A stretch of 64,000 nt of DNA from the NCBI GenBank assembly GCA_007132975.1, contig SLNO01000016.1, forward strand, positions 1,600 to 65,599. Direction: 5' to 3'. Below the pieces are notes generated by a model that was not told the DNA's origin, made no database searches, and worked only from the letters and a program-made list of their open reading frames with translations. The DNA comes from Balneolales bacterium. Lineage in GTDB: Bacteria; Bacteroidota; Rhodothermia; Balneolales; Natronogracilivirgulaceae. Both the position numbers and the translations under genes were made by a program. This document shows positions 21,269-59,511 of the stretch, piece by piece. Position 1 is the stretch's first letter. Every line of letters begins with the position of its first letter.

Positions 21269-23182
21269 ATGCGGAAGACCCTGTCACTATTTACCAGTGT
21301 ACTGCTGGCCGTTCTGTTCCTGGCCGGCGCCTGTGGCACCCCCGAACCTGTCACAGTAACTCCAGAACCTCGTTTTTCAAAAGCCGACGCCCCCACATTC
21401 TACCGCGAGGCAACGGCGTCGGAGGGGATGGTAGTATCGGCACATCCGCTTGGCAGCGAAGCCGGAAAGAGCATGCTGGCCCTTGGCGGCAACGCGGTCG
21501 ATGCGGCTGTTGCCACCGCTTTTGCCATAGCCGTTCTGGAACCCAACATGTCCGGGCTTGGCGGAAGCGGCGCCATGACGATATGGAACCGGCTGGAAGG
21601 CCAGGCCGACTACCTGGATTTCTACGCGGCAACCGGCGCCGACCCTGATTACGAGCTGGACACCGATCCCGACTCACTGGTCACCAGGGAACGCGGCGTG
21701 GCTGTTCCCGGCATGGTGGCGGGGCTTCTTGAGGCGCTGGAGCGGTACGGCACGCTCGACCGCCAGACTGTTTTGGAACCGGCCATCCGGCTTGCGGAGG
21801 AGGGGTTCATCGTGCACCATCTGCTGGCCGATGTGATTGCCGGTTATTCCAGCCGGCTGCTCTATGACAACGACTCAGCCGCACTTTTCTACCCCGGCGG
21901 AGAGCCGCTCCGGGCCGGCGACCTGCTGATCCAGCCCGAACTCGCCGGTGTGCTGCGAAGCCTCGCCGAACAGGGCCGCGATGGCTTCTATTCCGGTGAT
22001 ATCGCCCGCCGCACAATTCAAAAACTCTCCGTGGGAAACAGCCGCCTGACGCTCACCGACTTCGAAAACTACCAGCCGACCTGGCGCGGGGCCCTCTGCC
22101 AGGAGTGGATGGGGCACCGCATCCTGAGCGCGCCGCCAAGCCTGGCCGGACACGAAGTGATCCTGGGCCTCAAGCTGATCGAACGGGGCAATATCGCCCG
22201 CCACGGACACCCCATCTCCAGCGGTGAAGCCCTGGGCGTGCTTGTGGATGCCATCCGAATTGCCCGCGCCGACCGCGGACAGTGGCAGGGCGACCCCACT
22301 TTCGTCGACCTGCCTGTTGCCGGTATGATCAGCGACGAGTATGCCTCGCTCCGTGCGGCATCCATGGGCGGCGATGTGCCCGATACGCTTCATTTCGGCA
22401 ACCCCTGGCCTGCTACACCGCGCTTCACCGCCCCTCCCGGCTGCATTGGCGATGGCTTTTTCGTCCCGCCCCTCAACATCACCGAACGCGATGCCGATGA
22501 GCTCCGGAGCCACATCCCCGCGCCACCCGTCCCTGAGGCGCCGGAAGCGGAAGCAATGGAAACGGAAGCGCCAGAAACTGAGGCCGCTCCGTCACCCGAT
22601 GCAGGCCCGGACGCCAACCCCGACATCGAGGAGCAGCACACCACGCACATATCGGTAGTGGACCGCCACGGCAACGCCGTCTCTATGACCAACACGCTGG
22701 GCCTGTATTTCGGGTCGGCCGTAATCTCCGACGGCGTCTTCTACAACTCGGCCAACCACAATTTCGGCGGCAGCTACGGCAGCATCAGAGGACCCGGACG
22801 CACGGCCCATTCAAGCACCGCCCCCACCATATTACTCAGCGGCGACCGCGTTGAACTTGTGGTAGGGTCGCCAGGCTCCGGCCGCATCCCCCCTGCCGTG
22901 ATCAGCATGATCGTCCACACCATGATCTATGATCTGCATCCTGCCGAAGCCATCCGCATGCCACGTGTATATCCCATGATCAACAATCCCGTTGTGCAGA
23001 TGGAGCGCGGTTACTCCGCCGAGGCGCTCAGAACGCTCAACGAACGCGGCTATGTCATCTCCCCATCCAACTTCCCGATGAACATGCTCTTCGGCGGCGT
23101 CCAGATGATACGGGTGCTGGATGACGGGACCATGATCGGGGTATCGGATCCCAGGCGTGACGGCGGGGCGGCCGGTCTCTGA
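21269..23182 (+). CDS. ggt: gamma-glutamyltranspeptidase
   Basis: Signal peptide. Autoprocessing/nucleophile motif TTHISVVDRHGNAVSMTNTLG. C-terminal GVSDPRRDGGAAG. Confidence 0.9.
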   Translation: MRKTLSLFTSVLLAVLFLAGACGTPEPVTVTPEPRFSKADAPTFYREATASEGMVVSAHPLGSEAGKSMLALGGNAVDAAVATAFAIAVLEPNMSGLGGSGAMTIWNRLEGQADYLDFYAATGADPDYELDTDPDSLVTRERGVAVPGMVAGLLEALERYGTLDRQTVLEPAIRLAEEGFIVHHLLADVIAGYSSRLLYDNDSAALFYPGGEPLRAGDLLIQPELAGVLRSLAEQGRDGFYSGDIARRTIQKLSVGNSRLTLTDFENYQPTWRGALCQEWMGHRILSAPPSLAGHEVILGLKLIERGNIARHGHPISSGEALGVLVDAIRIARADRGQWQGDPTFVDLPVAGMISDEYASLRAASMGGDVPDTLHFGNPWPATPRFTAPPGCIGDGFFVPPLNITERDADELRSHIPAPPVPEAPEAEAMETEAPETEAAPSPDAGPDANPDIEEQHTTHISVVDRHGNAVSMTNTLGLYFGSAVISDGVFYNSANHNFGGSYGSIRGPGRTAHSSTAPTILLSGDRVELVVGSPGSGRIPPAVISMIVHTMIYDLHPAEAIRMPRVYPMINNPVVQMERGYSAEALRTLNERGYVISPSNFPMNMLFGGVQMIRVLDDGTMIGVSDPRRDGGAAGL

Positions 23183-31301: not shown

Positions 31302-31429
31302 GAGTGAAATGGGAAATACAAAAAAACTACTTGATTTTAAGCAATTGTATTCTTTACATTTGCTGATTATACACTGTTATTTCGTTAGAATAACCGGACT
31401 GTAAAATACAAAATAGATAAGTATAAAGA

Positions 31430-31516
31430 ATGACGATGTTCCACCATTTCTGCATTGTAACCATGATGTGTTGTATGCCTGGCATTGCTGATGGTGGTGG
31501 TCTCTCCGTGACTTAG
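31430..31516 (+). CDS. candidate Cys/Met-rich leader peptide (28 codons) of the cysI operon
   Basis: My own translation; it falls below the ORF-track cutoff. The peptide is MTMFHHFCIVTMMCCMPGIADGGGLSVT*, with 3 Cys and 5 Met. The inverted repeat CCACCAT/ATGGTGG brackets the Cys/Met codons. Confidence 0.5.
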   Translation: MTMFHHFCIVTMMCCMPGIADGGGLSVT

Positions 31517-31544
31517 TCACACACGTTATAGTGTTTGAATTTAG

Positions 31545-31580
31545 AAGCCCGCTGCCATCCTGGTTGCGGGCTTTTTTTTT
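31545..31580 (+). terminator. intrinsic terminator (attenuator candidate) upstream of cysI
   Basis: AAGCCCGCTGCCATCCTGGTTGCGGGC followed by T9. There is no upstream plus-strand gene for it to terminate. Confidence 0.75.
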
Positions 31581-31751
31581 GTCCGCCGCCAGCCCTGAAT
31601 GCGGCACTGACAAAACCGACCCGATGAATACAACTGCAGATGGACATGGTGATATTTGAATCAGATCGGCATGCAGTTTAACGGATTACAGATATCAACG
31701 GACAACAACCAAACTGACAATAAAAAAGCAACAACCAAACAGACTACACCA

Positions 31752-33440
31752 ATGACAAAAAAAAGCAGCAAGGTGGAACTGATCAAAGAGGAGAGCGGTA
31801 ATCTCCGGGGGGATCTGGCCACGCAACTTCACAACGGTCAAAACTATTTCGACAAGAACGCAATACAGATCCTGAAATTTCATGGTATTTACCAGCAGGA
31901 TGACCGGGATCTGCGTCGTATCAAAGGTCGGGACAAAGAGTGGAGTTTCATGATACGCAGCCGCATTCCCGGCGGTGGATTAACGGCCACGCAATATCTG
32001 GCCCATGACCGGCTGGCCGATACATACGCAAATGGAACCATTCGCCTGACAACCCGCCAGACAATCCAGTTCCATGGAGTGGTCAGGGGTGACCTTTCAT
32101 CCACGCTCCGGGAACTGCATGATGAGATGATCATTGCCCTTGGCGCTTGTGGCGACATTGTCCGCAATGTGATGTGCTGCCCGGCGCCGGCTGGATCCAG
32201 GACAGACCACGTCATTCAGGAGTATGCACAAAAGCTTTCCGACCATCTGCTCCCGCGCAGCAAGGCTTATTACGAAATATGGATCGACGGGGAAAAAGCC
32301 GGGTCCAGCCAGCAGAACGACCCTGAGCATGAACCGCTGTACGGGAAAAACTACCTCCCCCGCAAATTCAAGATCGGTATTGCCTGGCCCGGTGACAACT
32401 GTGTCGACGTTTTCACGCACGATATCGGACTGGTTGCCACAATAAATGACCATGACGAACTGCAGGGCTTCACCATTCTTGTTGGCGGAGGCATGGGCAT
32501 GAACCACAAGAAGAAAGAGACCTTCCCGCGCCTGGCCGACCCCCTTGCCTGGGTGCCGCATGAGGAGGTCATCGATGTGGTGACGCACATTGTGGCGATA
32601 CAGCGGGATTACGGCGACCGGGAAAACAGGAAGCATGCCCGATTCAAATACCTGATTGATGAGTGGGGCATCCCGAAGTTCAAAAAGGAACTGGAGGATA
32701 GGCTCGGTTACCGCCTTGCACCACCTCTTGACCTCGGCGACATGCGTCCGGAACTGCACCTTGGCTGGAACCGCCAGGCTGACGGACGCTGGTATCTGGG
32801 AATATCCGTGGAAAACGGACGCATCAAGGATACGCCGGAAATCCGGCTCAAGACCGGTCTGCGGGAGATCATCAGGCGATTCGGGACGGATGTCCGGCTC
32901 ACTCCCAACCAGGACATCCTACTGACAAACATTTCAGAGGAAGATCAGCATGCCATTGAGCAGATGATCCGCGAACACAACATACCGCACGATTACACGC
33001 TCAGCAATGCCCGGAGATACTCAATGGCCTGCCCTGCCCTGCCCACTTGCGGTTTGGCAGTTGCCGAGTCGGAGCGGGTCTTTCCAGGGATCATCCGCGA
33101 ACTGGAACAGGTCCTGGAGGAGTTGGGTCTGGACAAGGAAGTCATCACATTCCGGATGACCGGCTGCCCGAACGGATGCGCGCGCCCCTACGTGGCCGAT
33201 ATCGGGTTCGTGGGACACTCCATGAATAAATATGACATTTTCATCGGCGGTGACCCTGCCGGAAGAAGGCTCAACAGCCTGTATCGCGGGCTTGTACCGC
33301 TGGAGGAACTGGTTGAAACCGTGAAAACCCTTCTGGTTCAGTATCAAAATGAAAGGTACGAAGGCGAAAAATTCGGTGACTACGTCGCCCGTGTCAACCT
33401 TGTTGACGAAACCAACCAGATTAGCGAGGCAGGCTCATGA
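31752..33440 (+). CDS. cysI: assimilatory sulfite reductase hemoprotein (CysI/Sir type)
   Basis: N-terminus MTKKSSKVELIKEESGNLRG matches the CysI start pattern as I recall it. Siroheme/4Fe-4S cysteines MACPALPTCGLA and MTGCPNGCARP. The track ORF starts at a TTG at 31656. Confidence 0.92.
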   Translation: MTKKSSKVELIKEESGNLRGDLATQLHNGQNYFDKNAIQILKFHGIYQQDDRDLRRIKGRDKEWSFMIRSRIPGGGLTATQYLAHDRLADTYANGTIRLTTRQTIQFHGVVRGDLSSTLRELHDEMIIALGACGDIVRNVMCCPAPAGSRTDHVIQEYAQKLSDHLLPRSKAYYEIWIDGEKAGSSQQNDPEHEPLYGKNYLPRKFKIGIAWPGDNCVDVFTHDIGLVATINDHDELQGFTILVGGGMGMNHKKKETFPRLADPLAWVPHEEVIDVVTHIVAIQRDYGDRENRKHARFKYLIDEWGIPKFKKELEDRLGYRLAPPLDLGDMRPELHLGWNRQADGRWYLGISVENGRIKDTPEIRLKTGLREIIRRFGTDVRLTPNQDILLTNISEEDQHAIEQMIREHNIPHDYTLSNARRYSMACPALPTCGLAVAESERVFPGIIRELEQVLEELGLDKEVITFRMTGCPNGCARPYVADIGFVGHSMNKYDIFIGGDPAGRRLNSLYRGLVPLEELVETVKTLLVQYQNERYEGEKFGDYVARVNLVDETNQISEAGS

Positions 33441-34435
33441 TCCACAAAATAGATGCTCGCACCCATCCTAATTCCGCGGACAGATCCATTGAATCGCCGG
33501 GCGGGCTGCAAACGGTCACCTTGACATTCAAAAAGAACAAACCTGCGCCGGGCACGGTATACATTGCAGGTGCAGGTCCGGGCGATCCGGAACTGATGAC
33601 GGTCAAAGCCATGCGGGTGCTGCAGTCGGCCGATGTGGTTGTTTTCGACCGGCTGGTTAATCCGTTGCTTTTGAATGAGATTCGTCCCGATGCACGGAAA
33701 ATCAGTGTCGGCAAGAAACCCGGCAGAGCCTCGGTTTCACAAACCGAGATCAACCGGATACTGGTAACGGAAGCCCGCATGGGGCAGACCGTGCTTCGGC
33801 TGAAAGGCGGCGATCCGTTTGTCTTCGGCCGGGGCGGCGAGGAGTGCCTTGAACTTGCCGCGGAGGGCATCCCATTCGAAGTAATACCAGGAATCAGCAG
33901 CGTGACGGGTGCCACCGCCTATGCCGGAATCCCCCTTACTATGCGCAACCTGGCCACCGGCTTCAGTGTAATAAGTGGCCATCTGCATCCAGACAGCCCG
34001 GAATACGACTGGCAGGCGCTCTCTCAAACCCCGACCCTGGTTATCCTGATGGGAGCTCGCAACCTGAACCTCATCATCGATCGGCTCACGATCCACGGTA
34101 AAGACGGCGATACGCCCATTGCACTGATACACGAAGGTACCACGGCTCGGCAGCAGGTTACGACCGGCAGACTGTCGGATATCCACACGAAGTGTTCTGA
34201 AGTGCGTTCCCCTGTGCTGATTGTCATCGGCGAAGTGGTCCGTTTTCGTGAAGAAATAGCCTGGTTCCAGCCGGGAACGATTACCGAAGATATCCGCGAT
34301 GCTCCGGAAGCCAGTTACCCGAAACAGGTCAAGGCCACGGTTGATGCCGCTGTTCAGGCACGGGCCGTATCCTCAGCTCAGGCGAAGTCCATCCATCCAA
34401 CTAAACACACCTCAAAAACTGCAGCATCCCCATGA
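33437..34435 (+). CDS. cobA: uroporphyrinogen-III C-methyltransferase (SUMT) with C-terminal extension
   Basis: VYIAGAGPGDPELMTVKAMRVLQSADVVVFDRLV and RLKGGDPFVFGRGGEE. Its ATG overlaps the cysI stop (ATGA at 33437-33440). Confidence 0.92.
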   Translation: MIHKIDARTHPNSADRSIESPGGLQTVTLTFKKNKPAPGTVYIAGAGPGDPELMTVKAMRVLQSADVVVFDRLVNPLLLNEIRPDARKISVGKKPGRASVSQTEINRILVTEARMGQTVLRLKGGDPFVFGRGGEECLELAAEGIPFEVIPGISSVTGATAYAGIPLTMRNLATGFSVISGHLHPDSPEYDWQALSQTPTLVILMGARNLNLIIDRLTIHGKDGDTPIALIHEGTTARQQVTTGRLSDIHTKCSEVRSPVLIVIGEVVRFREEIAWFQPGTITEDIRDAPEASYPKQVKATVDAAVQARAVSSAQAKSIHPTKHTSKTAASP

Positions 34436-34547
34436 AAAAAGTTCATGAAGTGCCACGAACACGGTCGCATCCCTCTGGCACACATGGGAATGATCACATC
34501 CTGCCAAGTGAAACCACTCTAACCAAAAAATTCAAAGTTTTAAATTC

Positions 34548-35261
34548 ATGCAATTGAACGACCGGCTGATCAGCAATCTCAACGATGAATACAAGGGCAG
34601 CGACCCGGCGCGGATCTTGGAATGGGCCGTCAAAACATTCGGTGAAGACGCGGTTTTGTCCACCGGATTCGGGGCCTCGGGCATTGTCCTGATGCACCAG
34701 CTGTCGATCGTGCGTCCGGGCGCACCGGTGTTTTATCTGGATACGGACCTCCTTTTCGACGAAACCTATGAGCTGATCGAACGGATCCGGGAGCGCCTGG
34801 ATATCCGGCTGTTCCGTGTCAGTCCAGAACACACCCTCGATCAGCAGACTGCGGAATTCGGTGAAAATCTGTGGGAAACCCGGCCCGACCAGTGCTGCCA
34901 TATCCGCAAAGTGCTGCCCTTGAAGAAGTTCCTCAGCGACCGCAAAGCGTGGATCACTGCCATCCGCAGGGACCAGTCCGCAACACGAAAAAACACCCCG
35001 ATTTTTCAACAGGATCACTGGCTGGATGTTCTCAAGGTGTGTCCGCTGGCCGGCTGGACCGAGGACAAGATATGGGACTATCTGAACGTCAACCGACTTC
35101 CTTACAACGAGCTGCACGACCGGGGCTACCCGAGCATCGGATGCCGGCCCTGTACCCGTCCGGCAGCAACCAACGGGGACCTTCGTGCCGGAAGATGGTC
35201 GGGCACGGCCAAGACAGAGTGCGGTCTTCACAATCGAATCATTCAACCCACGGATCAATGA
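34548..35261 (+). CDS. cysH: (phospho)adenylylsulfate reductase, Fe-S cluster (APS-reductase-like) type
   Basis: Contains the C-terminal catalytic KTECGLH motif. Also carries the cluster cysteines CC (PDQCCHIRKVLPL) and CxxC (SIGCRPCT). Confidence 0.9.
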   Translation: MQLNDRLISNLNDEYKGSDPARILEWAVKTFGEDAVLSTGFGASGIVLMHQLSIVRPGAPVFYLDTDLLFDETYELIERIRERLDIRLFRVSPEHTLDQQTAEFGENLWETRPDQCCHIRKVLPLKKFLSDRKAWITAIRRDQSATRKNTPIFQQDHWLDVLKVCPLAGWTEDKIWDYLNVNRLPYNELHDRGYPSIGCRPCTRPAATNGDLRAGRWSGTAKTECGLHNRIIQPTDQ

Positions 35262-35947
35262 CATTCTACCCGGTATATCTCACTCGCCTGGACCGGAAGA
35301 CAGTAGTACTCCTCGGAGGCAACCATGAAGCGGAGCGAAAAGCCGTTGAACTCCTCTCATTCGGCGCCAAAGTGCATCTCATCAGCCCGCGGATTACCCT
35401 TGCGCTCAGACAGCTCCATGAGCAGGGAAAATTCCGTTGGACTCCAAGGGAATACCGCTACGGGGATCTGGTGGATGCCGGTTTTGCCGTGGCGGCCGAC
35501 TATTCTCCGGAGACGGCGCGGGAATTTGCCAGGGAGGCGGAAGACCGCAACATTCTGGTGAACGTCATGGACAACATGCCGCTGTCCGATTCGGCCTTCG
35601 GCTCCGTTGTGCGGCAGGGCAAACTGACCGTTTCATTTTCGACCGGCGGTCTGGCACCCGCCCTGGCAGTCCGGCTGAAGGAACGGTTTGAGCGTGAGCT
35701 GGACGATGCCTACGGCCGGTTCCTGGACCTGGCCGGCATGCTGCGTCCGGCCATCATGGAGCACATCGAAGACGGGGAACTGCGTAAAAAGAAGTGGTAT
35801 GAATGGGTGGATTCCGGAACCATTTCAGCGCTTCGCGAAGGCGACGAGCAGCAGGCCATGGCTATCACTGCGGATATCTGGGGGGACGAGGTCATGCAAC
35901 GGGCAGGAATCCCGGCCGCGAAATACAGCTCCGGGCATTCCTTGTAA
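35258..35947 (+). CDS. precorrin-2 dehydrogenase / sirohydrochlorin ferrochelatase (CysG N-terminal domain / SirC-Met8 type)
   Basis: 229 aa starting MTFYPVYLTRLDRKTVVLLGGNHEAERK, with NILVNVMD and LTVSFSTGGLAPALAVRLK. Its ATG overlaps the cysH stop (ATGA at 35258-35261). The first 129 codons of the track ORF (34871-) are an out-of-frame overlap with cysH. Confidence 0.8.
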   Translation: MTFYPVYLTRLDRKTVVLLGGNHEAERKAVELLSFGAKVHLISPRITLALRQLHEQGKFRWTPREYRYGDLVDAGFAVAADYSPETAREFAREAEDRNILVNVMDNMPLSDSAFGSVVRQGKLTVSFSTGGLAPALAVRLKERFERELDDAYGRFLDLAGMLRPAIMEHIEDGELRKKKWYEWVDSGTISALREGDEQQAMAITADIWGDEVMQRAGIPAAKYSSGHSL

Positions 35948-36005
35948 CGTTGCTTGCAGCATTTCTTGTAACATTCCTTGCAGCATTCCCATCGGTCGGT
36001 TCTGG

Positions 36006-37394
36006 TCAGCGGTGCCATTTCCATCTGATGCCGGACCATACCCCAAGCACCATGGCCAGAGTGAATACCCAACCCGACAAGGCAAATGCTGAAATGCCTG
36101 ACAGTGTAGTCCCAATGGTGCATCCCAGGGAGATCATAGCCCCTAAACCCAACAGTACGCCGCCGGCAAAACCCTTCAGCGCTTTCGTGGCGGTCAGCCG
36201 ACTGAGCCTGAACCGGCCGGAAAGCAAAGCGGCAATCAGGGAGCCGGCTACCAGAGCAACTACGAATATCCCGTTGCCAGTCAGCACTTCAGGAGCTGCG
36301 GCGGTGCTGCACCCTGCAAATCCATCCAGTCCCTCCAGCCGGTCGGGCAGCAGATCGAACCGGTTGCCGAGTTGCCGGGAATAACGGCCCAGTTCGGCAG
36401 TTACACCGAGCGGTTCCACACGCAGATAGGCGATCATGGACAGCAGCCCGACCACAACCCCGCCGACCCACGTCGGCCAAAGCTCCACAAAAACCCGGCT
36501 CCACACACTGGAAAGTGACAACGTGCCACTGTCTGGCGAAACAGGCTGACCGCCCCCGGAATATGACGGGTCACTGCAATCCGCAAATGCCGATGATTTT
36601 TGAGTAGATGGATGCTCAGATTGCTTTGAAGCCAAATCCGACTGGGTGGGTGCATCGTCAAAATGGGTGGATGCGGCCGATGTCTGGCCAGTTGCCGCAG
36701 TAGCCTGCCCGAATGCCGCCGGATCACAGCCTGTATCGCCGGACGGTTTTGCTTCCGGATCCGGCCGGAACCGGATCAGAAGCCACAGCTTGAGTGATAG
36801 CAGCACTGCCAGTTGTACCAGGGTCCATACGGCATAGCCGCCATACTCCGGCAGCCATATGACCGGTGAGGTGGAAATGGTCGCGACATAGAGCCGGTTC
36901 CAGACCATGAACCCCAGAATGAAGCCGGCCGCAGACCCGGCCAGGGCAAACGGTGCAACGCTGTACCCCTCGCCAAGCCGGTAGAGGTGTGCGCTGATGC
37001 ACGATCCGGAAAGCGCCATCCCCCACCCGAACAGCAAACCGCCAAGGAGCAAATGCCAGCTTACAGGTCCAATGTGCGCATCCTGGGGCAGATATCCAGC
37101 TGACGGATCGGCAATCCAGTTTCCAAAAAGCACGACATAACCGATACTCCCAACAAGCAGTGCTGCTAACAGCCCGGCTGCCGGCCTGCCATCGCCAAAT
37201 TCAAACAGATCGCGCAACACACAAAAAAAGCAGAACCGGGATCTTTGCAGCACCAGTCCGAAAAGGGCACCCGTCACAATCAGGAACGGAGCTCTTGAGC
37301 CATGCTGCCCGCTGCTGCCGGCAAGGTACCAGAAACCGACAAGCAGCAAGAGCATGGTGGCAGCGCCGATATGGCGCCATATTGAAACATTCAT
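36006..37394 (-). CDS. fused double YeeE/YedE-family sulfur-compound (thiosulfate-type) permease
   Basis: Two YeeE/YedE halves, with GWGMALSGSCISAH in the first and GLGAMISLGCTIG in the second. They are joined by a ~110-aa low-complexity linker. Confidence 0.8.
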   Translation of the reverse strand: MNVSIWRHIGAATMLLLLVGFWYLAGSSGQHGSRAPFLIVTGALFGLVLQRSRFCFFCVLRDLFEFGDGRPAAGLLAALLVGSIGYVVLFGNWIADPSAGYLPQDAHIGPVSWHLLLGGLLFGWGMALSGSCISAHLYRLGEGYSVAPFALAGSAAGFILGFMVWNRLYVATISTSPVIWLPEYGGYAVWTLVQLAVLLSLKLWLLIRFRPDPEAKPSGDTGCDPAAFGQATAATGQTSAASTHFDDAPTQSDLASKQSEHPSTQKSSAFADCSDPSYSGGGQPVSPDSGTLSLSSVWSRVFVELWPTWVGGVVVGLLSMIAYLRVEPLGVTAELGRYSRQLGNRFDLLPDRLEGLDGFAGCSTAAAPEVLTGNGIFVVALVAGSLIAALLSGRFRLSRLTATKALKGFAGGVLLGLGAMISLGCTIGTTLSGISAFALSGWVFTLAMVLGVWSGIRWKWHR

Positions 37395-37415
37395 GAATCA
37401 GTCCGGATTTTGCGA

Positions 37416-38330
37416 TTATTTACCGGTCCAGACCGTTCCCGCGGGATTGTCGATAGGAACGCCCACTGCGTTGCCGTATTCCGTCCACGATCCGTCGTAG
37501 TTCCTTGTTTCGTATCCCAGAAGGAAGTGAAGGGCGAACCAGGTGTGGCTGGACCGCTCCCCGATCCGGCAGTAGGTAATCACCGGCTTGCTGCCGTCGA
37601 TACCCTTTTCGGCATAGATCTTCCGTATCTGCTCCCTTGGCAGGAACGTGCCATCCTGCGGATTGACGATTTCACCCCAGGGCACATTAACGGCACCGGG
37701 TATGTGACCGGCCCTGATGGCCAGCTCCTGGATCCCCTCCGGAGCAATCACACGTCCCTCGTACTCCGCTCTCGAACGGATGTCAATGAGCGCGCCGGGT
37801 TGATCCTCCTTGACCACGGCAAGCACATCCTGAAGATTGGCACGAAGATGATCGTTGATCTGTGTGACGCGGTAGTCGGTGCGGGTGTAAGACGCCGGTC
37901 GCGAACTGAGTGGCCGGCGCTCGCGCTCCCACTTATCGCGGCCTCCATCCAGGATTTTGATGTTATCATGTCCGTAGATGGTGAAGACCCAGGCACCCCA
38001 GGCAGCAAACCAGTTGTTGTGGTCGCCGTACAGGACAACGGTGGTCTCATTGGAAATGCCGCTTCCGGACAACAGTTCCGCGAATTTTTCCGGTGAAACA
38101 ATATCGCGGCGAACCGGATCCACAAGGTCCGTATGCCAGCGGAAGTTGACTGCGCCGGGAATGTGCCCGCGTTCGAACTTTCCGGGCTCCACACTTACTT
38201 CTACAAACCTGACATCCGGGTTGTTGAGGTTCTGGGCCGCCCAATCCGTGGATACGACCGGCTCTGATGGCCGGGCCTGAATGTTCACGGCAAATAGGAG
38301 AGCGATAATGAGTATGCTGTATTTTTTCAT
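37416..38330 (-). CDS. exported tandem-rhodanese thiosulfate sulfurtransferase
   Basis: Signal peptide MKKYSILIIALLFAVNIQA, two rhodanese domains, and active-site loop YCRIGERSSHTW. Confidence 0.88.
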   Translation of the reverse strand: MKKYSILIIALLFAVNIQARPSEPVVSTDWAAQNLNNPDVRFVEVSVEPGKFERGHIPGAVNFRWHTDLVDPVRRDIVSPEKFAELLSGSGISNETTVVLYGDHNNWFAAWGAWVFTIYGHDNIKILDGGRDKWERERRPLSSRPASYTRTDYRVTQINDHLRANLQDVLAVVKEDQPGALIDIRSRAEYEGRVIAPEGIQELAIRAGHIPGAVNVPWGEIVNPQDGTFLPREQIRKIYAEKGIDGSKPVITYCRIGERSSHTWFALHFLLGYETRNYDGSWTEYGNAVGVPIDNPAGTVWTGK

Positions 38331-38484
38331 CTGTTTTTTTCTGGTTGGTTGTTGTTTCTATTTGTTGATTGGTTGGTTGCTTGTGATTCTTGTTTTGTCT
38401 GATGTTGCCAAACATTTTTGTTGGCGAGTGGTTTGTTGGTGATTGATTGAAATTGTTTCAAGGAGCTGCCGATATCCTCTCCGA

Positions 38485-40428
38485 TCAGATGTTATCTTTG
38501 AAAACCCGCTTCATGATCTGCGCGACGGCCTCATCCACCCCGATCCTGTCGGTTTTGATGGACAACGTCTCCGGGCCGGACAACTCGTATTCGGCATCGT
38601 AGCCGGTCAGTGACTTTATTTTCCCCTCCCTGGCTTTGCGGTAAAGTCCCTTGGGGTCACGCTGTTGACGCGTTTCCGGATCGCAGTGCAGATGGACCTC
38701 GGTGAACGCTCCGTCCGGGAACAGCGATGCGGCACGACTCCGGTCCCTGCGGTTCGGCGAGACGAACGAGCAGATCACCACATTTCCGTGCTCGTAAAAC
38801 AGCCGGGCCACTTCCGCTGCCCTTCGAATGTTTTCGGTGCGGTCGGCAGTTGAGAAACCGAGATCGCCGTTGAGGCCGTGCCGAACCTGGTCCCCGTCCA
38901 GCAGCATGGTCTTGATGCCGGCATCCCAGAGCTTCCGCTCAAGCGCCCGTCCGATGGTCGTTTTTCCGGCGCCGGATACCCCGGTCAGCCAGATCACCCG
39001 GGCGCGATGTCCGTTCCTTTTTTCGCGCTCTTCACGCCCGATGTTCCACGGATCCCAGAAAGTATTCGGACTTTTGATTGCGGATTCCGCCGATTGCGCG
39101 CTGTCCCGCTTCGCCGCCGTTTCAGCCCGGATCATTCCCGCCGCCGCCGTCACATTGGTCTCCGGATCCACCAGGATGAAACTGCCTGTGGCGCTGTTTT
39201 TCCTGTAAGGGTCCACAAAAACGGGCCGCGCCGTCTCAATGCTGATCCGGCCGATTTCGTTGAGTGCCAGCGTGGAGGCCGGGTCGCGGCTCAGCGAATC
39301 CACATCGATGCGATGGTGGACCGCCCTGACGACTGCCGCGGTGGTGTTCGTGGTGTGCATGAGCACGTAGTTGCGGCCAATCTGCAGGGCGGTGCCGTTC
39401 ATCCAGCACAGATCGGCCTCAAACCGGGTTGTCACGGCGGGTGGATGGTGGCCGTGCACGATCATGTCGCCGCGGCTCAGATCCATCTCGTCGCCAAGGC
39501 GCAGGATCACCGAATCTCCGGTAGAAGCCTGGCCGACCGGCCCATCGGGCGTATCAATGGCTTTGATGGTGGTTTTCTGGCCCGCCGGCAGCAGCATGAC
39601 CTCATCATTCCGTTGCACGCTGCCCGATACCACCCTGCCGGCAAAACCGCGATAGTCCTGATCGGGACGTATGACATACTGCACCGGGAAACGGAATCCG
39701 CCCTGTGTTTTACGTGCATCCACCCGGACATGCTCCAGATGGTGCAGCAGCGTGGGTCCGTCGTACCACGGCATCGACTCCGAACTGTTGACGATATTGT
39801 CCCCCTTGAGAGCGGATATGGGGATGCTGGTGACTTCCTCCACATCCAGATGCTTCGAAAATGTGCGAAATTCCTCCACAATCTCTTCAAAACGATCACG
39901 GGAATAATCCACAAGGTCCATTTTGTTCACTGCAAGGACCAGCCGGGGGATTTGCAGCAGGGAGGATATGAACGCGTGACGGCGGCTTTGGGTGAGCACG
40001 CCCTTGCGCGCATCGATCAGGATGATGGCCAGATCGGCTGTGGAAGCCCCGGTGACCATGTTGCGGGTGTACTGCTCGTGGCCGGGTGTGTCGGCAATGA
40101 TGAATTTCCGCCTGGGGGTTGCGAAATAGCGGTAAGCCACGTCAATGGTAATCCCCTGCTCCCTTTCCGCCCGAAGTCCGTCGGTGAGAAGCGCCAGGTT
40201 GACCGCCTCGCCGCGATTGACGGCCGTCTGCTCAAGTGCATCCAGCTGATCCTCGAATATGGATTTACTGTCGAACAGAAGCCGGCCAATAAGGGTGCTT
40301 TTGCCGTCATCCACGCTGCCCGCCGTGGTAAAACGGAGCAGGTCCATGGTTTCGCCGGCGGTTTTCTCTTCCGGGTGGATGAGGCCGTCCTGCGGTGCCT
40401 CTGTTGTGCTGTTCTTTGTACTGCTCAC
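38485..40428 (-). CDS. cysNC: bifunctional sulfate adenylyltransferase subunit 1 / adenylylsulfate kinase (CysN-CysC fusion)
   Basis: GTPase motifs GSVDDGKST, DTPGH and NKMD. C-terminal APS kinase P-loop WLTGVSGAGKTT. The track start is a GTG. Confidence 0.93.
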   Translation of the reverse strand: MSSTKNSTTEAPQDGLIHPEEKTAGETMDLLRFTTAGSVDDGKSTLIGRLLFDSKSIFEDQLDALEQTAVNRGEAVNLALLTDGLRAEREQGITIDVAYRYFATPRRKFIIADTPGHEQYTRNMVTGASTADLAIILIDARKGVLTQSRRHAFISSLLQIPRLVLAVNKMDLVDYSRDRFEEIVEEFRTFSKHLDVEEVTSIPISALKGDNIVNSSESMPWYDGPTLLHHLEHVRVDARKTQGGFRFPVQYVIRPDQDYRGFAGRVVSGSVQRNDEVMLLPAGQKTTIKAIDTPDGPVGQASTGDSVILRLGDEMDLSRGDMIVHGHHPPAVTTRFEADLCWMNGTALQIGRNYVLMHTTNTTAAVVRAVHHRIDVDSLSRDPASTLALNEIGRISIETARPVFVDPYRKNSATGSFILVDPETNVTAAAGMIRAETAAKRDSAQSAESAIKSPNTFWDPWNIGREEREKRNGHRARVIWLTGVSGAGKTTIGRALERKLWDAGIKTMLLDGDQVRHGLNGDLGFSTADRTENIRRAAEVARLFYEHGNVVICSFVSPNRRDRSRAASLFPDGAFTEVHLHCDPETRQQRDPKGLYRKAREGKIKSLTGYDAEYELSGPETLSIKTDRIGVDEAVAQIMKRVFKDNI

Positions 40429-40508
40429 TTTTTATCTGGTGTCTTTAGTAGCTGTTTTTGTCTGGATGCCAATCGAGGTGTCTCCCCGGCTTAAAAACAG
40501 GTTCGGAT

Positions 40509-41495
40509 TCAAAAATACCCGGCCTTTTTCCGGTCTTCCATGGCCGCTTCCGATCTTTTGTCATCGTGGCGGTTGCCCCTCTCGGTCACGCGCGCAGCAG
40601 CGACTTCGGCAATGATCTCATCCAGACTGGATGCCACGGAAAGCACGGCCCCTGTGCAGGTTACGTCGCCAATGGTCCGGAAACGGACGATCTTCTCCTC
40701 AGGTTTTTCATCCGGATAGCGGTTGATGAACCCGGAGTCGTCCAGCCATGTGCCCCGCCTGTTGAAGACACGCCGCCTGTGGGAGAAGTAAAGTGATGGT
40801 ATGGGAATCCGCTCGGCGGCAATGTACTGCCAGATATCCATCTCGGTCCAGTTGCTCAGCGGGAACACACGGAAATGCTCGCCCGGGTTCTTTCGTCCGT
40901 TGAAAAGACTCCACAGTTCCGGACGCTGGTTCTTGGGATCCCACTGCCCGAAAGCGTCACGGTGCGAGAAAAAGCGTTCCTTTGCCCGGGCTTTTTCCTC
41001 GTCACGTCGCCCACCGCCCAGTGCGCAGTCCACGTTGTGCTCCTTGAGTGCGTCCAACAGGGTAACCGTCTGCAGGGCGTTGCGGCTGGCCTCCGGACCT
41101 GTCTCCTCCCGCACTTGTCCCCTGTCAATGCTCTCCTGCACGTGAGCCACAATGAGTCGGGCTCCGGTCCTTTCAGCCAGATCGTCCCGGAAGCGGATGG
41201 TTTCGGGGAAATTGTGCCCGGTATCGATGTGCAGCAGTGGAAACGGAAACGGGGCGGGACGAAATGCCTTGAGGGCCAGGTGTACCATCACGATGGAATC
41301 TTTTCCACCGGAAAATAGCAGGACGGGACGTTCAAACTGGGCAGCCACTTCACGCAGCACAAAAATGGCCTCTTCTTCAAGAATGCCAAGGTGTACCGAT
41401 TTTCCCGGGTTGCATCCATCATCCGCAATTTGAGTCGGCCCGAATTGTGTTTTGATCCGGGAAGCGTGCTCAGTCTCAAGCAGTTGCAGTGTCAT
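40509..41495 (-). CDS. cysD: sulfate adenylyltransferase subunit 2
   Basis: PP-loop LLFSGGKDSIVMVHLALKAF. IDTGHNFPE and the remaining sequence resemble CysD. Confidence 0.93.
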   Translation of the reverse strand: MTLQLLETEHASRIKTQFGPTQIADDGCNPGKSVHLGILEEEAIFVLREVAAQFERPVLLFSGGKDSIVMVHLALKAFRPAPFPFPLLHIDTGHNFPETIRFRDDLAERTGARLIVAHVQESIDRGQVREETGPEASRNALQTVTLLDALKEHNVDCALGGGRRDEEKARAKERFFSHRDAFGQWDPKNQRPELWSLFNGRKNPGEHFRVFPLSNWTEMDIWQYIAAERIPIPSLYFSHRRRVFNRRGTWLDDSGFINRYPDEKPEEKIVRFRTIGDVTCTGAVLSVASSLDEIIAEVAAARVTERGNRHDDKRSEAAMEDRKKAGYF

Positions 41496-41613
41496 GTCTG
41501 TTGGTGTTGTTGATTATTGGTGTCTGTATCTGTTATCAGTGGCCATTTCTTTGGGGATGCGTTGCAGGCATGACCCAAATGTTGGCAAACCGATTCGTTG
41601 GTTGAAATTCTGT

Positions 41614-43164
41614 TCATGTCCAGAACCACGCTGCCACGGTTACGGTTACAGTCATGAGGATCAGGGTAACCGGCAGTCCGGCTTTCAGATAGTCGGTGTA
41701 GCGGTACCCGCCGGGTTCCATGACCATCAGGTTGGTCTGATAGCCCACCGGCGACAGAAAGCTGGCCGATGCGGCTACGGCAACAGTCACCCCCACCGCG
41801 TGCGGATCCAGACCGATGGCGGTGGTCGCATGCAGCGCCACCGGCAGCATCAGCACGGCAGCGGCATTGTTTGTGATCAGCTCGGTGAGCAGGTTGGTCG
41901 CCAGGTAGAGTCCGGCCAGCACCGCCAGCACCCCCCAGCGCGACGATTGTTCAAGCAGCAGAGCAGCCGCAGCGGATGCCAGTCCGGTGTTCTCAAGTGC
42001 GGCCCCGATACCGAGCGCTGCCGCAATGACGATCAGCACAGACAAATGGATGGATGGGAGGATACGGGACAATGGCAGCATGCCGGTCGCGATCAAAATG
42101 GCGGCCGTCGCTACAACAGCCATATGGATGGGCGCAATGCCGGTTACCGATATGCCGACCATGGCAATGACCATGGTAAATGTCCATGCCCTGGCTTTTC
42201 TGCCCGGAATCCTGGCGCTGGCTTCATCCTGCACCACTGAGTGCTTTTCAATTTCTGGATTGCCGGCCTGACCGGCATTGTATCCCCCATTGTTCACCCA
42301 TGATACTGGTGGATGCAGCTCCCAGTGGTTAATCCTGCCGTAGCTGCCGGCCCCGGCATATACACCGCTGGGAAATGACGCCGAAACCCCGGGTCCCGAT
42401 CCGGCTGAGGAGTAATCGCCAGTAATTCCGGCTAATGCCAAACTTTCCGGGAGAAGGTAGACACCGGCCGGCACGGCACGCTTGCCAGAATCCGCCCGTT
42501 TTTCAGGATTCGGACCGATCGCAACTGCCGGTGCATCTCCCTTTCTGTCCGGCAACAGGCGGTGCCCGATGAGGGAAAACCAGACCACGACCAGAATGGC
42601 TGCCGGAACGCCCACAAGCGCCAGCTGGAAAAAGTGAAACGGCACATGCCCCCTGTCGGCGAGCATTTCCGATACGATCAGGTTGGTTGATGTACCAAAC
42701 AGTGTAATTACACCCCCGACAATCGCTGCATAGGAGAGTGGAATAAGCAGTTTGGAGGCGGAAATTCCATATTTTCCGGCCCATTGCTGCAACTGCGGGA
42801 ATAGGATGGCGACGATCGGGGTGTTGTTCAGGATGGACGACATGGCCGCGGTGGATCCCATCACCCGGAACAAGACCGAACCGGTTGAGGATGAACCTGG
42901 ACGGTAGAACCGATCGAGGAATGAAAGCAGTCGTACGTGCTGCACGCTTCCGGCAACCAGGAACAGCGCCCCTACCGTAATGACTACCGTGCTCGTGAAA
43001 CCGGCAGCCACATCCACCAGAGAAATGATACCCGGAACAAGCAGCAGGAACAGAGCCGAAACGAACAGCACAGCCGGTCGGGCGGCATTGCCAACCAGTG
43101 CGGCGATCAAGGCCAGGATGATTCCCAGGGCATATAAAGATTTCCAGTCCAGTATGTCGTGCAT
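41614..43164 (-). CDS. SLC13/DASS-family permease (probable sodium:sulfate symporter)
   Basis: 516-aa polytopic protein with a two-fold repeat architecture. A central low-complexity loop occupies the position where many homologues carry TrkA-C domains. It is the first gene of the cysD-cysNC operon. Confidence 0.75.
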   Translation of the reverse strand: MHDILDWKSLYALGIILALIAALVGNAARPAVLFVSALFLLLVPGIISLVDVAAGFTSTVVITVGALFLVAGSVQHVRLLSFLDRFYRPGSSSTGSVLFRVMGSTAAMSSILNNTPIVAILFPQLQQWAGKYGISASKLLIPLSYAAIVGGVITLFGTSTNLIVSEMLADRGHVPFHFFQLALVGVPAAILVVVWFSLIGHRLLPDRKGDAPAVAIGPNPEKRADSGKRAVPAGVYLLPESLALAGITGDYSSAGSGPGVSASFPSGVYAGAGSYGRINHWELHPPVSWVNNGGYNAGQAGNPEIEKHSVVQDEASARIPGRKARAWTFTMVIAMVGISVTGIAPIHMAVVATAAILIATGMLPLSRILPSIHLSVLIVIAAALGIGAALENTGLASAAAALLLEQSSRWGVLAVLAGLYLATNLLTELITNNAAAVLMLPVALHATTAIGLDPHAVGVTVAVAASASFLSPVGYQTNLMVMEPGGYRYTDYLKAGLPVTLILMTVTVTVAAWFWT

Positions 43165-43211
43165 CGCTATGCGGGGTGGTACAAGGGTTGTTACAATCGG
43201 GTGTTCAAGAC

Positions 43212-43249
43212 AAAAAAAAAGCCCGCTACCAGAACGGCAGCGGGCTTTT
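43212..43249 (-). terminator. intrinsic terminator (attenuator candidate) upstream of the SLC13-cysD-cysNC operon
   Basis: The minus strand reads AAGCCCGCTGCCGTTCTGGTAGCGGGC followed by T9. It is 33/36 identical to the terminator at 31545-31580. Confidence 0.75.
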
Positions 43250-43273
43250 ACATATAAAAGGATCTCAGACGGA

Positions 43274-43363
43274 TCAGTTCATACAACAACCACTGCCGGA
43301 CGGTACAGGCATAGCACAGCACATACAGAAATTGCAGCTATGAACGGCAGTTGTGGTTGTCAT
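43274..43363 (-). CDS. candidate Cys/Met-rich leader peptide (29 codons) of the SLC13-cysD operon
   Basis: My own translation of the minus strand gives MTTTTAVHSCNFCMCCAMPVPSGSGCCMN*, with 6 Cys and 4 Met. The inverted repeat ACAACCACAACTGCCG / CGGCAGTGGTTGTTGT (14/16 bp) brackets the Cys/Met codons. Confidence 0.5.
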   Translation of the reverse strand: MTTTTAVHSCNFCMCCAMPVPSGSGCCMN

Positions 43364-43546
43364 GAAAACGAATTAATTAAGAAAAAATCAGAAGTTTGAG
43401 CGATGCACTATCAGGCACATCTGTTCCGGTTGCCTGGCAACGGTGCTGTAGAACACGGTAACACCTGTGCGGACAAACCAACCAAGGCAAAAGTACATCC
43501 ATCCTGACCCTATGTCAAATAATAATTTTCAGATGCGCCTATTTTC

Positions 43547-45106
43547 TTATATCACCAGCTCAAAAACCCCTCCGCGACGCTCATCACCCGCACCCTGAAA
43601 ACCGTCCGGGCCGCGCATGGCCGAGTGTACACCACCGAAAAACAGGTTGGAACTGCTCCAGAGTTTGTGGTCCGGCCACTCGCTGAGCACCGGTGCCAGT
43701 GCCCCGGGATCAAAGCCACGCTCCACCGAGAGGTGCTCTTTTTCACAGTGGATGCGCGGGCTGCGCGTTGCCTCGTCCAGCGGCATGCCGTAGTCCAGCA
43801 TGTTCAGGATCACCTGGAGGATGGCGGTCCGGATCCGGTTGGATCCGCCAGAGCCGAAAGCCATGACTGCGCCGTCTTTGCGGGTAAGGATGCCGGGGGC
43901 CATCATGGAGGTGATGCGGGTGTCCTCGGGCCAGCGATGGAACCCGCCCGGATGCAGGTCCTCCTCTCCCAGCATGTTGTTGAGCATCACGCCGGTGCCG
44001 GGGATGACGTGACCGCACCCCTCTCCGTTGCTGGTTGTCAGACTGGCGGTGTTGCCACGGGCATCCATGACGCTTATATGCGTGGTGCCGCGCGTGAAGC
44101 GGGCGTAGTCGGACATCTGGCGGCGGTAGGCGGAGAGATGCTCCGGATCGAGGATATCCTCGCCAGGGACCGGCAGGTTGTTGCGCAGCAGATAGTCGAT
44201 GCGCGCCTGGTCGGTGAGCCTCTGCACTTTGGCCAGCCGCTGAAGGTGTCCGGTGGACCCAAAGGGATGCTCGGATGGATCCGCCTCTTCCATCAGTTTC
44301 AGAGCGAAAGCGATGAGGGTGCCACCGGAGCTGGGTGCTGGATTGAAAGCCAGCGAGGCCGCATCCCGATAGGTTATTTCGAGCGGTTTGCGCCGGATGA
44401 CTTCATAGTTCCGGAAGTCCTCAATCGTCAGGTGCCCGCCGGCAGTCCGGCTCATACGGTCCACCTGCTCGGCGATTTCGCCTTTGTAGAAAAGGTCTTC
44501 CCCCTCCAAGGCCAGCACTTCCAGCAAGTCAGCGAGATCTGGTTGGTGCAGCACGTCGCCATCAGCCAGCAGGCCGTTTTCCCGCTCTGGATTGCCGTAA
44601 ATATCAAGGGAAGCCCGGGTGGACCGGTAAATCGGCGAGATGATATCGAGTATGTAGGCCTGGAAATGGTTCAGGGCCACACCACTGCGGGCCAGCCCGA
44701 TCGCCGGTTCGGCCAGTTGTTTCATGGACATGCGGCACAGGTCGCGCTGGATGGCGAAAAGTCCGCGCACGGTGCCCGGAGCGCCGGCCGAACCCATGCC
44801 AATGTGGAATTCCTGAAAGGTCTCCCCAAAATCGGCCGAGATGGGATAAAATTCAACTTGGTCTGGCGGACGCCTTTTGCGCGGTGTCTGGATGAAAAAA
44901 TCGTAGAGTGTCTGGCTGGCGTCCGGGGTGCGGGCCATCAGGAATCCGCCACCGCCAGGTGAGGAGAGTACCGGCTCGGTCACGCAGGCAGCCAGATGCG
45001 CGGCTACCACAGCGTCAAATGCGTTACCGCCGCTTTTGAGGATATCGGCAGCTACACGAGCTGTCTGTTCGTGCCCCGCTGCAATAACGCCAGAATTCTG
45101 TTTCAC
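43547..45106 (-). CDS. gamma-glutamyltransferase family protein (cytoplasmic type, no signal peptide seen)
   Basis: Nucleophile motif TTHISVMDARGNTASLTTSNG. C-terminal GAGDERRGG. Confidence 0.88.
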   Translation of the reverse strand: MKQNSGVIAAGHEQTARVAADILKSGGNAFDAVVAAHLAACVTEPVLSSPGGGGFLMARTPDASQTLYDFFIQTPRKRRPPDQVEFYPISADFGETFQEFHIGMGSAGAPGTVRGLFAIQRDLCRMSMKQLAEPAIGLARSGVALNHFQAYILDIISPIYRSTRASLDIYGNPERENGLLADGDVLHQPDLADLLEVLALEGEDLFYKGEIAEQVDRMSRTAGGHLTIEDFRNYEVIRRKPLEITYRDAASLAFNPAPSSGGTLIAFALKLMEEADPSEHPFGSTGHLQRLAKVQRLTDQARIDYLLRNNLPVPGEDILDPEHLSAYRRQMSDYARFTRGTTHISVMDARGNTASLTTSNGEGCGHVIPGTGVMLNNMLGEEDLHPGGFHRWPEDTRITSMMAPGILTRKDGAVMAFGSGGSNRIRTAILQVILNMLDYGMPLDEATRSPRIHCEKEHLSVERGFDPGALAPVLSEWPDHKLWSSSNLFFGGVHSAMRGPDGFQGAGDERRGGVFELVI

Positions 45107-59101: not shown

Positions 59102-59287
59102 GTGATAAATCGTAGTCAAACAGTTGCAAAGGCACTTCCCCTTCCAGGGTTTGATACCCGGGTTGCAACAATTGTAACGGCCATCACATCGGAAGTTTCT
59201 TCCGGCCTCCTTTCCTCCGTACTCCGCACATCTCTTGTCAGCGGCATCATTATTCTAATTATCGACCTACTAATTGGCAACCTATAA
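59102..59287 (+). CDS. candidate branched-chain amino acid leader ORF (Ile/Leu/Val-rich tail)
   Basis: 61 codons from a GTG with no in-frame ATG, ending ...SLVSGIIILIIDLLIGNL*. The stop codon lies inside the hairpin TGGCAA/TTGCCA, and an 11-bp inverted repeat follows. Confidence 0.35.
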   Translation: MINRSQTVAKALPLPGFDTRVATIVTAITSEVSSGLLSSVLRTSLVSGIIILIIDLLIGNL

Positions 59288-59511
59288 AAATTGCCAGAGG
59301 TCATCCTGCATCCCGTCTTTTTAGAATAAATCGCTGAATCCGGAATTAAGGTAATGACCTCTGGGAAACCGGACTGTACACCATACACCAGAAACGACAT
59401 TACCCATGAAAAATCCACACGAAAACGAACACGCATATCGCCTGGGAGCATGCTGTCGCTATTCTTGTGGATATTCCATCTGAACCTGTCCCAAAATCAC
59501 GGAATCAACAG

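Follow-up and report, generated by a model that had tools for sequence, protein, structure and literature searches.

The window analysed here, a 64,000-nt stretch of contig SLNO01000016.1 (positions 1,600 to 65,599, assembly GCA_007132975.1) from a Balneolales bacterium, contains two convergent operons for sulfate assimilation, each of which is preceded at its outer end by a module consisting of a short cysteine-rich leader open reading frame (ORF) and an intrinsic terminator. Operon 1 (31656-35947, + strand) comprises cysI (from a TTG at 31656 or an ATG at 31671 to 33440), cobA (33437-34435), cysH (34548-35261) and a sirC-like gene (35258-35947). Operon 2 (36006-43164, - strand) begins with a gene for a DASS/SLC13 permease (43164-41614) and continues with cysD (41495-40509), a cysN-cysC fusion (40428-38485), a gene for a tandem rhodanese (38330-37416) and a YeeE/YedE-like gene (37394-36006). 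The DASS protein is identical to one encoded on contig SLBN01000070.1 of the metagenome-assembled genome (MAG) GCA_007126305.1, and its close homologs all stem from Balneolales. Annotation with Pfam and NCBIfam confirms the convergent arrangement and the gene identities put forward in a first-pass annotation of this DNA. Its description of the locus as complete was overstated, as the encoded pathway reaches sulfide but none of the identified genes is cysJ, cysK/cysM or cysE.

Leader ORF 1 (31430-31516, + strand) has 28 codons and encodes MTMFHHFCIVTMMCCMPGIADGGGLSVT, leader ORF 2 (43363-43274, - strand) has 29 codons and encodes MTTTTAVHSCNFCMCCAMPVPSGSGCCMN. Both peptides share the M-C-C-(x)-M-P core noted in the first-pass annotation, and both contain a Cys-Cys pair plus one to four additional cysteines. 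In module 1 the putative regulatory codons read ATG ATG TGT TGT ATG (M-M-C-C-M; 31463-31477, + strand), with the Cys-Cys pair at 31469-31474 (codons 14-15) and within the ATGTGYTGT stretch that is invariant in the alignment described below; in module 2 sequence and alignment point to TGT ATG TGC TGT GCT ATG (C-M-C-C-A-M; 43310-43327, - strand), with Cys-Cys at 43321-43316 (codons 15-16). Cysteine accounts for 3 of 28 and 6 of 29 residues in the two window leaders as compared to 0.56% in 26 window proteins (binomial P = 5e-4 and 1e-8, respectively), while the respective figures for leader residues overall are 19% for Cys and 11.8% for Met, the latter contrasting with 2.3% in the same 26 proteins.

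The leader ORFs are followed by the 36-nt patterns AAGCCCGCTGCCATCCTGGTTGCGGGCTTTTTTTTT (31545-31580, + strand) and AAGCCCGCTGCCGTTCTGGTAGCGGGCTTTTTTTTT (43247-43212, - strand), which are identical at 33 of 36 positions, as originally reported; no other match with up to three mismatches exists in the window (shuffled sequences lead to an expectation of 0). Scanning and folding identified both as intrinsic terminators, one with a 14-bp stem (31544-31580, + strand) and one with a stem of 14-15 bp (43212-43249, - strand), each followed by nine U residues. The stems start about 25-27 nt past the leader stop codons; the distance from stop codon to pattern amounts to 28 nt in module 1 and to 26 nt in module 2, or 24 nt when measured to where the A-tract begins, so that the originally given distances of 28 and 24 nt are about right. 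Terminator 2 ends just 47 nt ahead of the DASS start codon, so that a separate promoter would have little space in between. Sigma-70-like promoters, predicted by reading the sequence, lie further upstream: for operon 1, a -35 element TTGATT (31331-31336) and a -10 element TACATT (31355-31360) with an 18-nt spacer (31331-31360, + strand), and for operon 2, TTGACA (43518-43513) and TACTTT (43495-43490) with a 17-nt spacer (43490-43518, - strand). The conserved -35 and -10 (TAnnTT) elements predicted in this way are located about 70 nt and 125 nt upstream of the leader ATG of modules 1 and 2, respectively. The operon 1 layout is also kept upstream of orthologous leaders of the first type, and TTGACAT plus TAnnTT at 17-nt spacing is kept upstream of eight leaders of the second type, the contig of locus L001 ending short of the site. 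No further conserved element was detected between these predicted promoters and the leader ORFs of the orthologs, where the 5' untranslated region (UTR) varies in length as well as in sequence.

Orthologous loci, denoted here by L numbers, were gathered via homologs of CysI, CysD and DASS (the CysI search of genome contigs yielded two loci, while most were found via CysD and DASS), and L006 and L078 were added from a metagenome scan for the hairpin; modules were detected by a script that looks for short ORFs with a CC pair and then for a terminator. In total, 21 modules were recognized in the window and in 12 related loci, L001, L002, L006, L078, L123-L126 and L129-L132. All of them are located upstream of sulfate-assimilation operons, and they are found at nearly all starts of such operons that were examined. 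With regard to the question whether related loci retain both modules, which the first-pass annotation had raised, the outcome is mixed: both types, termed M1 and M2 after modules 1 and 2, occur in L001, L124, L125 and L129 (Natronogracilivirga saccharolytica), while M2 alone is present in L123, L130 (strain ANBcel1), L131 (strain ANBcel3) and L132 and M1 alone in L078. In L126, from a Balneolaceae MAG, the genes form one fused operon with a single divergent module, and two modules are arranged in tandem in L002 (3220-3346 and 3456-3601, ahead of cysI) and L006 (3986-4152 and 4212-4411, ahead of rhodanese-cysI-cobA-cysH). Such tandem Cys-leader-terminator units would be serial attenuators, sharpening the response. 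L128 was set aside as an ortholog, since its context is polysaccharide sulfation and unrelated. The modules align over their whole length, including ATGTGYTGT, a GGnrGnGG segment and the terminator, and distinct M1 and M2 forms coexist in the four loci that have both; judged from these alignments, modules 1 and 2 are true and ancient paralogs, in agreement with the original proposal.

The specificity of the association was assessed with a covariance model, R1, of the module core. In 284 kb of Balneolales DNA, full-length matches to R1 (88-117 bits) occur at operon starts only, those in the window being located at 31460-31580 and 43330-43212, and no further full-length copy was found in this DNA. 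Six modules that had been held out of the model still match it, namely those of L131 (73 bits), L006a (54), L002a (49), L126 (39), L006b (38) and L002b (26). Among 100 unrelated loci with the same hairpin motif R1 scores do not exceed 45 bits and mostly reflect the terminator part alone. A metagenome scan with the 5' arm plus CGGGYTTTTT returned more than 120 matches in unrelated contigs, nearly all of them ordinary gene-end terminators and only two, L006 and L078, related modules; in 733 kb of unrelated metagenome DNA the module script gave seven weak CC matches, none of which was Met-rich or of the MCC type. Hence, the hairpin is generic and the module is specific. The first-pass annotation had argued for a dedicated cassette and had named a generic terminator or repetitive extragenic palindromic (REP) sequence as the finding that would speak against it. 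Within the lineage the dedicated cassette holds, since both window copies and all full-length R1 matches in the 284 kb lie at sulfur operon starts; in metagenomes the bare hairpin is indeed generic. One of the unrelated loci, L070 (2405-2523, + strand, metagenome contig SDBT01000852.1), combines a short ORF, MKKSFQSAFNHWFWWWPRKYGSWDGAN, containing three consecutive Trp codons with a terminator that has the same 5' arm (AAGCCCGCTGCC...) and resembles a Trp-codon attenuator.

Folding and alignment suggest how leader ORF and terminator could be connected. Both leaders are predicted to be built from four segments, as trp-type attenuators are, and the loop that joins segment 1 to segment 2 contains the regulatory codons. 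Segment 1 is close to the ORF start; segment 2 is also situated inside the ORF, 15-17 nt past the Cys-Cys codons, and segments 3 and 4 are the two arms of the terminator. In module 1, segment 1 (TTCCACCATT; 31439-31448, + strand; minimum free energy (MFE) fold and RNAalifold consensus of six M1 sequences) would act as anti-antiterminator arm by pairing with segment 2 (GATGGTGGTGG, coding for D-G-G-G; 31490-31500, + strand), which begins 22 nt after the first Cys nucleotide and, according to folds, duplex energies and alignment, could pair either with segment 1 or with the 5' arm of the terminator, i.e., segment 3 (CCGCTGCCATC; 31549-31559, + strand). In module 2 the corresponding elements are segment 1 (ACAACCACAACTGCCG, coding for T-T-T-T-A; 43345-43360, - strand; MFE fold and RNAalifold, eight M2 sequences), segment 2 (CGGCAGTGGTTGTTGT, coding for G-S-G-C-C; 43283-43298, - strand) and segment 3 (CCGCTGCCG; 43243-43235, - strand); here, the core CGGCAGTGG of segment 2 partners the terminator arm and the entire segment partners segment 1. 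In the MFE structures of the full leaders (z = -3.7 and -5.8), the 1:2 helix and the terminator flank small hairpins located past the stop codon. When the 3' arm of the terminator is omitted, GAUGGUGGUGG (31490-31500) pairs with CCGCUGCCAUC (31549-31559) in module 1 and CGGCAGUGG (43298-43290) with CCGCUGCCG (43243-43235) in module 2. For module 2 the individual duplexes are also more stable than those of mononucleotide shuffles (2:3, dG -17.7, p=0.007; 1:2, dG -19.6, p=0.007).

These elements are conserved across the orthologs in a manner that reflects both translation and RNA structure. An in-frame Cys-Cys pair is present in 21 of 21 modules. In an alignment of 14 sequences (A1) ATGTGYTGT is invariant, accompanied by the GGnrGnGG segment and the terminator, and the two Cys codons vary at the third position alone (TGTTGT in nine, TGCTGT in five modules). 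The M1 orthologs of L125, L001, L078 and L124 keep an open frame of 28-29 codons with in-frame Cys-Cys, and the M2 ORF has 29-30 codons in eight of nine orthologs, that of L001 reading as a longer ORF. Stop codons follow Cys-Cys at a distance of 45 nt in all nine M2 and in two of six M1 modules. The spacing between Cys-Cys and the beginning of segment 2 was measured in 14 M1/M2 modules and amounts to 22-24 nt in 12 of them. At the structural level, 88.8% of the alignment cells pair in the terminator helix (3:4), where five pairs change on both sides. For the antiterminator (2:3) the value is 94.4%, as opposed to 34-73% when the partner is slid along the alignment, and none of 500 shuffles reaches the observed figure; one pair in this helix covaries (columns 84:156, AU5/UA4/CG2/GU1). 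The 1:2 helix is part of the RNAalifold consensus of eight M2 sequences, with an AACCAC:GTGGTT core, as well as of six M1 sequences, in both cases with some compensatory changes. In L131 the terminator differs (AAGCCUUCAACGCUCUCC; AAAAGCCUUCAACGCUCUCCGUUGAAGGC) and segment 2 reads, at the same position, GGAGAGUGU, which is complementary to ACGCUCUCC, while in L126, which has yet another terminator, GCGGUCGUG pairs with CAC-UGACCGC. This whole-helix compensation is the strongest evidence that the sequences provide for the predicted alternative pairing. The segment 2 motif of the M1 module of L129, GGCGGCGG, translates into Ala-Ala-Val instead of Gly-Gly-Gly, i.e., it is the RNA that is conserved there and not the peptide.

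Based on these features we propose, with a probability of roughly 0.8, that each module is a ribosome-mediated transcription attenuator that reads the level of charged tRNA-Cys and possibly tRNA-Met. What the sequences show is the set of elements, the alternative pairings with their conservation and covariation, and the confinement of the modules to sulfate-assimilation operons; that the ORF is translated, that the ribosome stalls and in which direction regulation runs is inferred. Transcription would start at the sigma-70-like promoter and the short leader ORF would be translated. If Cys-tRNA were scarce, the ribosome would stall on the in-frame Cys-Cys codons in the loop between segments 1 and 2 and keep these two segments apart, so that segment 2, about 15-17 nt beyond the stalled codons, would remain free to capture the emerging 5' arm of the terminator (segment 3). 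The terminator would thereby be blocked and RNA polymerase would continue into cysI-cobA-cysH-sirC or DASS-cysD-cysNC-rhodanese-yeeE. If Cys were plentiful, translation would proceed across segment 2 up to the stop codon, 45 nt beyond Cys-Cys; segment 2 would then be either masked or paired with segment 1 again, which would let the 3:4 terminator form and end transcription. Modelled in this way, the 1:2, 2:3 and 3:4 pairings supply a mechanism for the duplicated cassette, and the paralogous modules would place both halves of the pathway under one signal. Calculations on nascent transcripts are consistent with such a switch: 13 of 15 M1/M2 modules show upstream pairing of segment 3 at a probability of 0.55-0.85 with a ribosome mask at Cys-Cys, and with the mask at the stop codon this probability is lower (0.03-0.60) in 14 of 15. 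Methionine might be sensed in addition, by way of the Met codons that are interspersed among the Cys codons; as AUG has no synonym, conservation at the codon level and conservation at the RNA level leave the same trace at these positions.

Several observations weigh against this reading or restrict it. The equilibrium structure of most M1/M2 modules contains the terminator under either ribosome mask, so that the switch would have to be kinetic, as in trp, and a ribosome on the stop codon covers segment 2 just partly. The M1-type 1:2 helix contains several broken pairs. Energies of the 2:3 and 1:2 duplexes, calculated sequence by sequence, are often no better than those of mononucleotide shuffles (p 0.1-0.3 in many), although this is a weak test and alignment-based pair counts are more informative. 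The modules are closely related and therefore offer few independent substitutions. The second Cys-Cys pair, located within segment 2 of most M2 peptides, has no clear role in the model. This pair is part of a GSGCCM-x-stop terminus in the window (43283-43288, - strand) and in L001, L129, L130, L131 and L132, where its UGUUGU pairs with ACAACC of segment 1; as other residues take its place in L123, L124 and L125, its role is probably structural rather than that of a further sensing site. Finally, L127, a locus with DASS, cysQ, cysD and cysNC, has no module, and control of this type is thus not universal in the order.

The features that support attenuation by codon starvation have to be weighed against four other explanations. 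A nascent-peptide arrest of the TnaC or SecM type would involve the same switching of the RNA downstream, but the signal perceived through stalling on M-C-C-(x)-M-P would be a small molecule (cysteine, sulfide or a thiol, for example) instead of the charging of tRNA-Cys. Pro codons are a hallmark of arrest peptides, and Pro indeed follows Cys-Cys within one to three residues in 16 of 20 leader peptides. On the other hand, in the predicted structure GGY of segment 2 has GCC of AUG-CCU as its partner, and the Pro codon after Cys-Cys-(x)-Met might therefore be kept at the RNA level; it may either slow elongation or supply this GCC. Furthermore, the remainder of the peptide is poorly conserved, M1, C15, C16 and G25 being the only invariant positions in the peptide alignment (A4), and a biosynthetic operon needs induction at low levels of its end product, which codon starvation provides directly. 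Peptide arrest is accordingly regarded as unlikely. Even less credence is given to an untranslated RNA element, a riboswitch or the site of a regulatory protein, in which ligand or protein would set the choice of the terminator and the ORF would be incidental. The conserved AUGUGYUGUAUG block and the alternative structures would suit such an element, but the variation is codon-like, being confined to TGT/TGC third positions in Cys-Cys, with a frame that stays open despite divergent flanks and with ATG and stop codon kept in position; moreover, the variable UTR ahead of the ORF and the lack of any conserved aptamer-like fold beyond the attenuator helices argue against it. In a scan of the whole window against Rfam the only match at gathering score was a tRNA, and neither leader reached the gathering score of any family, Phe_leader, the SAM riboswitches and T-box included; the best sub-threshold leader matches in an E-value scan of both leaders, Trp_leader (21.8 and 20.5 bits versus a gathering score of 41) and Thr_leader (15-21, at best 20.6, versus 55), are driven by the terminator.

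Open frames, a conserved length and the extreme Cys content could also be expected of independent genes for small Cys-rich peptides, e.g., metal- or thiol-binding peptides or precursors of ribosomally synthesized and post-translationally modified peptides, which would have their own terminators and merely adjoin the sulfur operons. This appears very improbable in view of the N- and C-terminal peptide sequences, which diverge freely, of segment 2 in the M1 module of L129, which is kept as RNA in another reading frame, and of the covariation of the alternative pairing. In addition, every module is placed between promoter and first sulfur gene in the orientation of the latter, down to 47 nt from the gene start, and tandem copies occur in L002 and L006. 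A chance combination of a generic terminator or REP-like hairpin with random short ORFs, to which the frequency of the 5' arm plus U-run motif in unrelated metagenome contigs might point, can be considered as effectively refuted already: the window holds only two copies, both at operon starts, 21 of 21 modules precede sulfur operons, and in the 733 kb of background DNA a Met-rich MCC-type ORF plus terminator exists only at the related loci L006 and L078.

Attenuation by tRNA charging has well-known precedents. The classical enterobacterial attenuators include trpL, hisL, leuL, thrL, pheL and ivbL and are represented in Rfam by Trp_leader (RF00513), Thr_leader (RF00506) and others. The Balneolales modules agree with them in a leader ORF, presumably translated, with tandem codons for the end product, in mutually exclusive 1:2/3:4 and 2:3 helices and in an intrinsic terminator before the first structural gene. 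Of the features that define this class, the Cys-clustered leader ORF, the intrinsic terminator on the same strand and the exclusive 2:3 antiterminator are all predicted here, and the 1:2 anti-antiterminator is clear in M2 and weaker in M1. Differences reside in the amino acid concerned (Cys, with or without Met), in the pathway (sulfate uptake, activation and reduction plus siroheme synthesis), in the host (Balneolales, a part of the Fibrobacteres-Chlorobi-Bacteroidetes (FCB) group), in the absence of sequence homology and in the regulatory codons, which are placed between segments 1 and 2, in the loop, and not within segment 1. A parallel for a possible co-sensing of Cys and Met is offered by thrL, which senses Thr and Ile, and by ilvL.

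Cysteine-rich leaders have also been described before. In mycobacteria, polycysteine leaderless small ORFs constitute a 'Cys ribulon' that acts at the level of translation by unmasking a ribosome-binding site and does not involve a terminator (Canestrari et al., 2020, bioRxiv 10.1101/834739), and for actinobacterial cys operons Cys leader peptides were predicted while terminator hairpins were explicitly not found (Seliverstov et al., 2005, PMC1262725). The modules described here resemble these systems in that short upstream ORFs with consecutive Cys codons precede cysteine or sulfur operons and in that several loci would be governed by one signal, the charging of tRNA-Cys, without a dedicated protein regulator. 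Unlike the mycobacterial ORFs, those of the Balneolales are not leaderless, as they follow a 5' UTR of 60-120 nt according to promoter prediction, and they are coupled to a strong intrinsic terminator and a predicted antiterminator. Closer in design is uORFC-8-2, which precedes cysS in Rhodobacterales. It is a predicted ribosome-mediated transcription attenuator whose leader contains two Cys codons in tandem, as a rule codons 14-15, and which ends in an intrinsic terminator (Brewer et al., 2021, PMC8632094). While the position of the Cys codons is similar and a terminator is common to both, the genes downstream of the Balneolales leaders are cysI or cobA and the DASS permease and never cysS, and their host does not belong to the alpha-proteobacteria. 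Moreover, the Cys codons of uORFC-8-2 are inside the first stem and not in the loop between segments, and by its description it is set apart by lacking Met enrichment and a paralogous pair that brackets a pathway. Full-text literature searches did not retrieve any account of a terminator attenuator that uses Cys codons, either for sulfate-assimilation operons or for Balneolales/Bacteroidota. In summary, the proposed mechanism is a textbook one and well supported computationally, while its predicted specificity for Cys, the sulfate-assimilation pathway and the lineage are new.

The neighborhood of the modules shows some variation and some constancy. The M1 leader directly precedes cobA in an operon without cysI in L125 (5116-8020), L124 (13476-18235), L129 (14643-17121) and L078, the latter apparently retaining a short remnant of the cysI 5' end, while cysI is present in the operon in the window, L001, L002, L006 and L126. 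L125 is the closest relative of the window (CysD 94% identical), and its locus also lacks rhodanese and yeeE. In the public annotation of L125 a hypothetical 91-aa ORF (7815-8090, + strand) is called on the strand opposite the M1 leader, i.e., automated annotation appears to mis-call the regulatory region. On the M2 side, a gene for gamma-glutamyltransferase, ggt (43547-45106, - strand, from annotation), is located upstream of the promoter predicted for module 2. It occupies the position directly upstream of that promoter at every M2 locus for which this region is available (window, L123, L124, L129-L132), a synteny that ties glutathione breakdown to sulfate uptake; a second ggt paralog is found in the window at 21269-23182 (+ strand). 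Elsewhere in the window, an ORF at 59102-59287 (+ strand) that ends in ...SLVSGIIILIIDLLIGNL and contains seven Ile and four Leu among its last 14 codons resembles a branched-chain amino-acid leader peptide. It sits in a 736-nt gap between ilvD (58731-56971, - strand) and an ilvB-like acetolactate synthase gene (59467-61326, + strand), has no ATG start (GTG at 59102), and no intrinsic terminator was found for it by scanning and folding.

The 21 members of the module family can be aligned and could be curated as an RNA family, which could improve the annotation of intergenic regions and predict sulfur-related genes. With Natronogracilivirga saccharolytica and strains ANBcel1 and ANBcel3 cultured carriers exist, and the prediction is therefore directly testable. 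As a more far-reaching and rather doubtful possibility, the MMCCM, CMCCAM and CMCMCCMK stretches, in which Met and Cys codons are invariably interleaved, might be dual sensors, in which read-through would depend on charged tRNA-Cys as well as on charged elongator tRNA-Met. Together with the tandem copies of L002 and L006 the modules might constitute a 'sulfur ribulon' that works without a protein, governs sulfate assimilation throughout the Balneolales as its main regulator and replaces factors of the CysB or CymR type. Sulfate assimilation is otherwise known to be controlled by protein regulators, by S-box and T-box RNAs or, in mycobacteria, by translational polycysteine upstream ORFs. Attenuation of the kind proposed here would extend leader-peptide transcription attenuation to cysteine and sulfate assimilation, and would show that the little-studied Balneolales of the FCB group coordinate two operons without a dedicated regulator.

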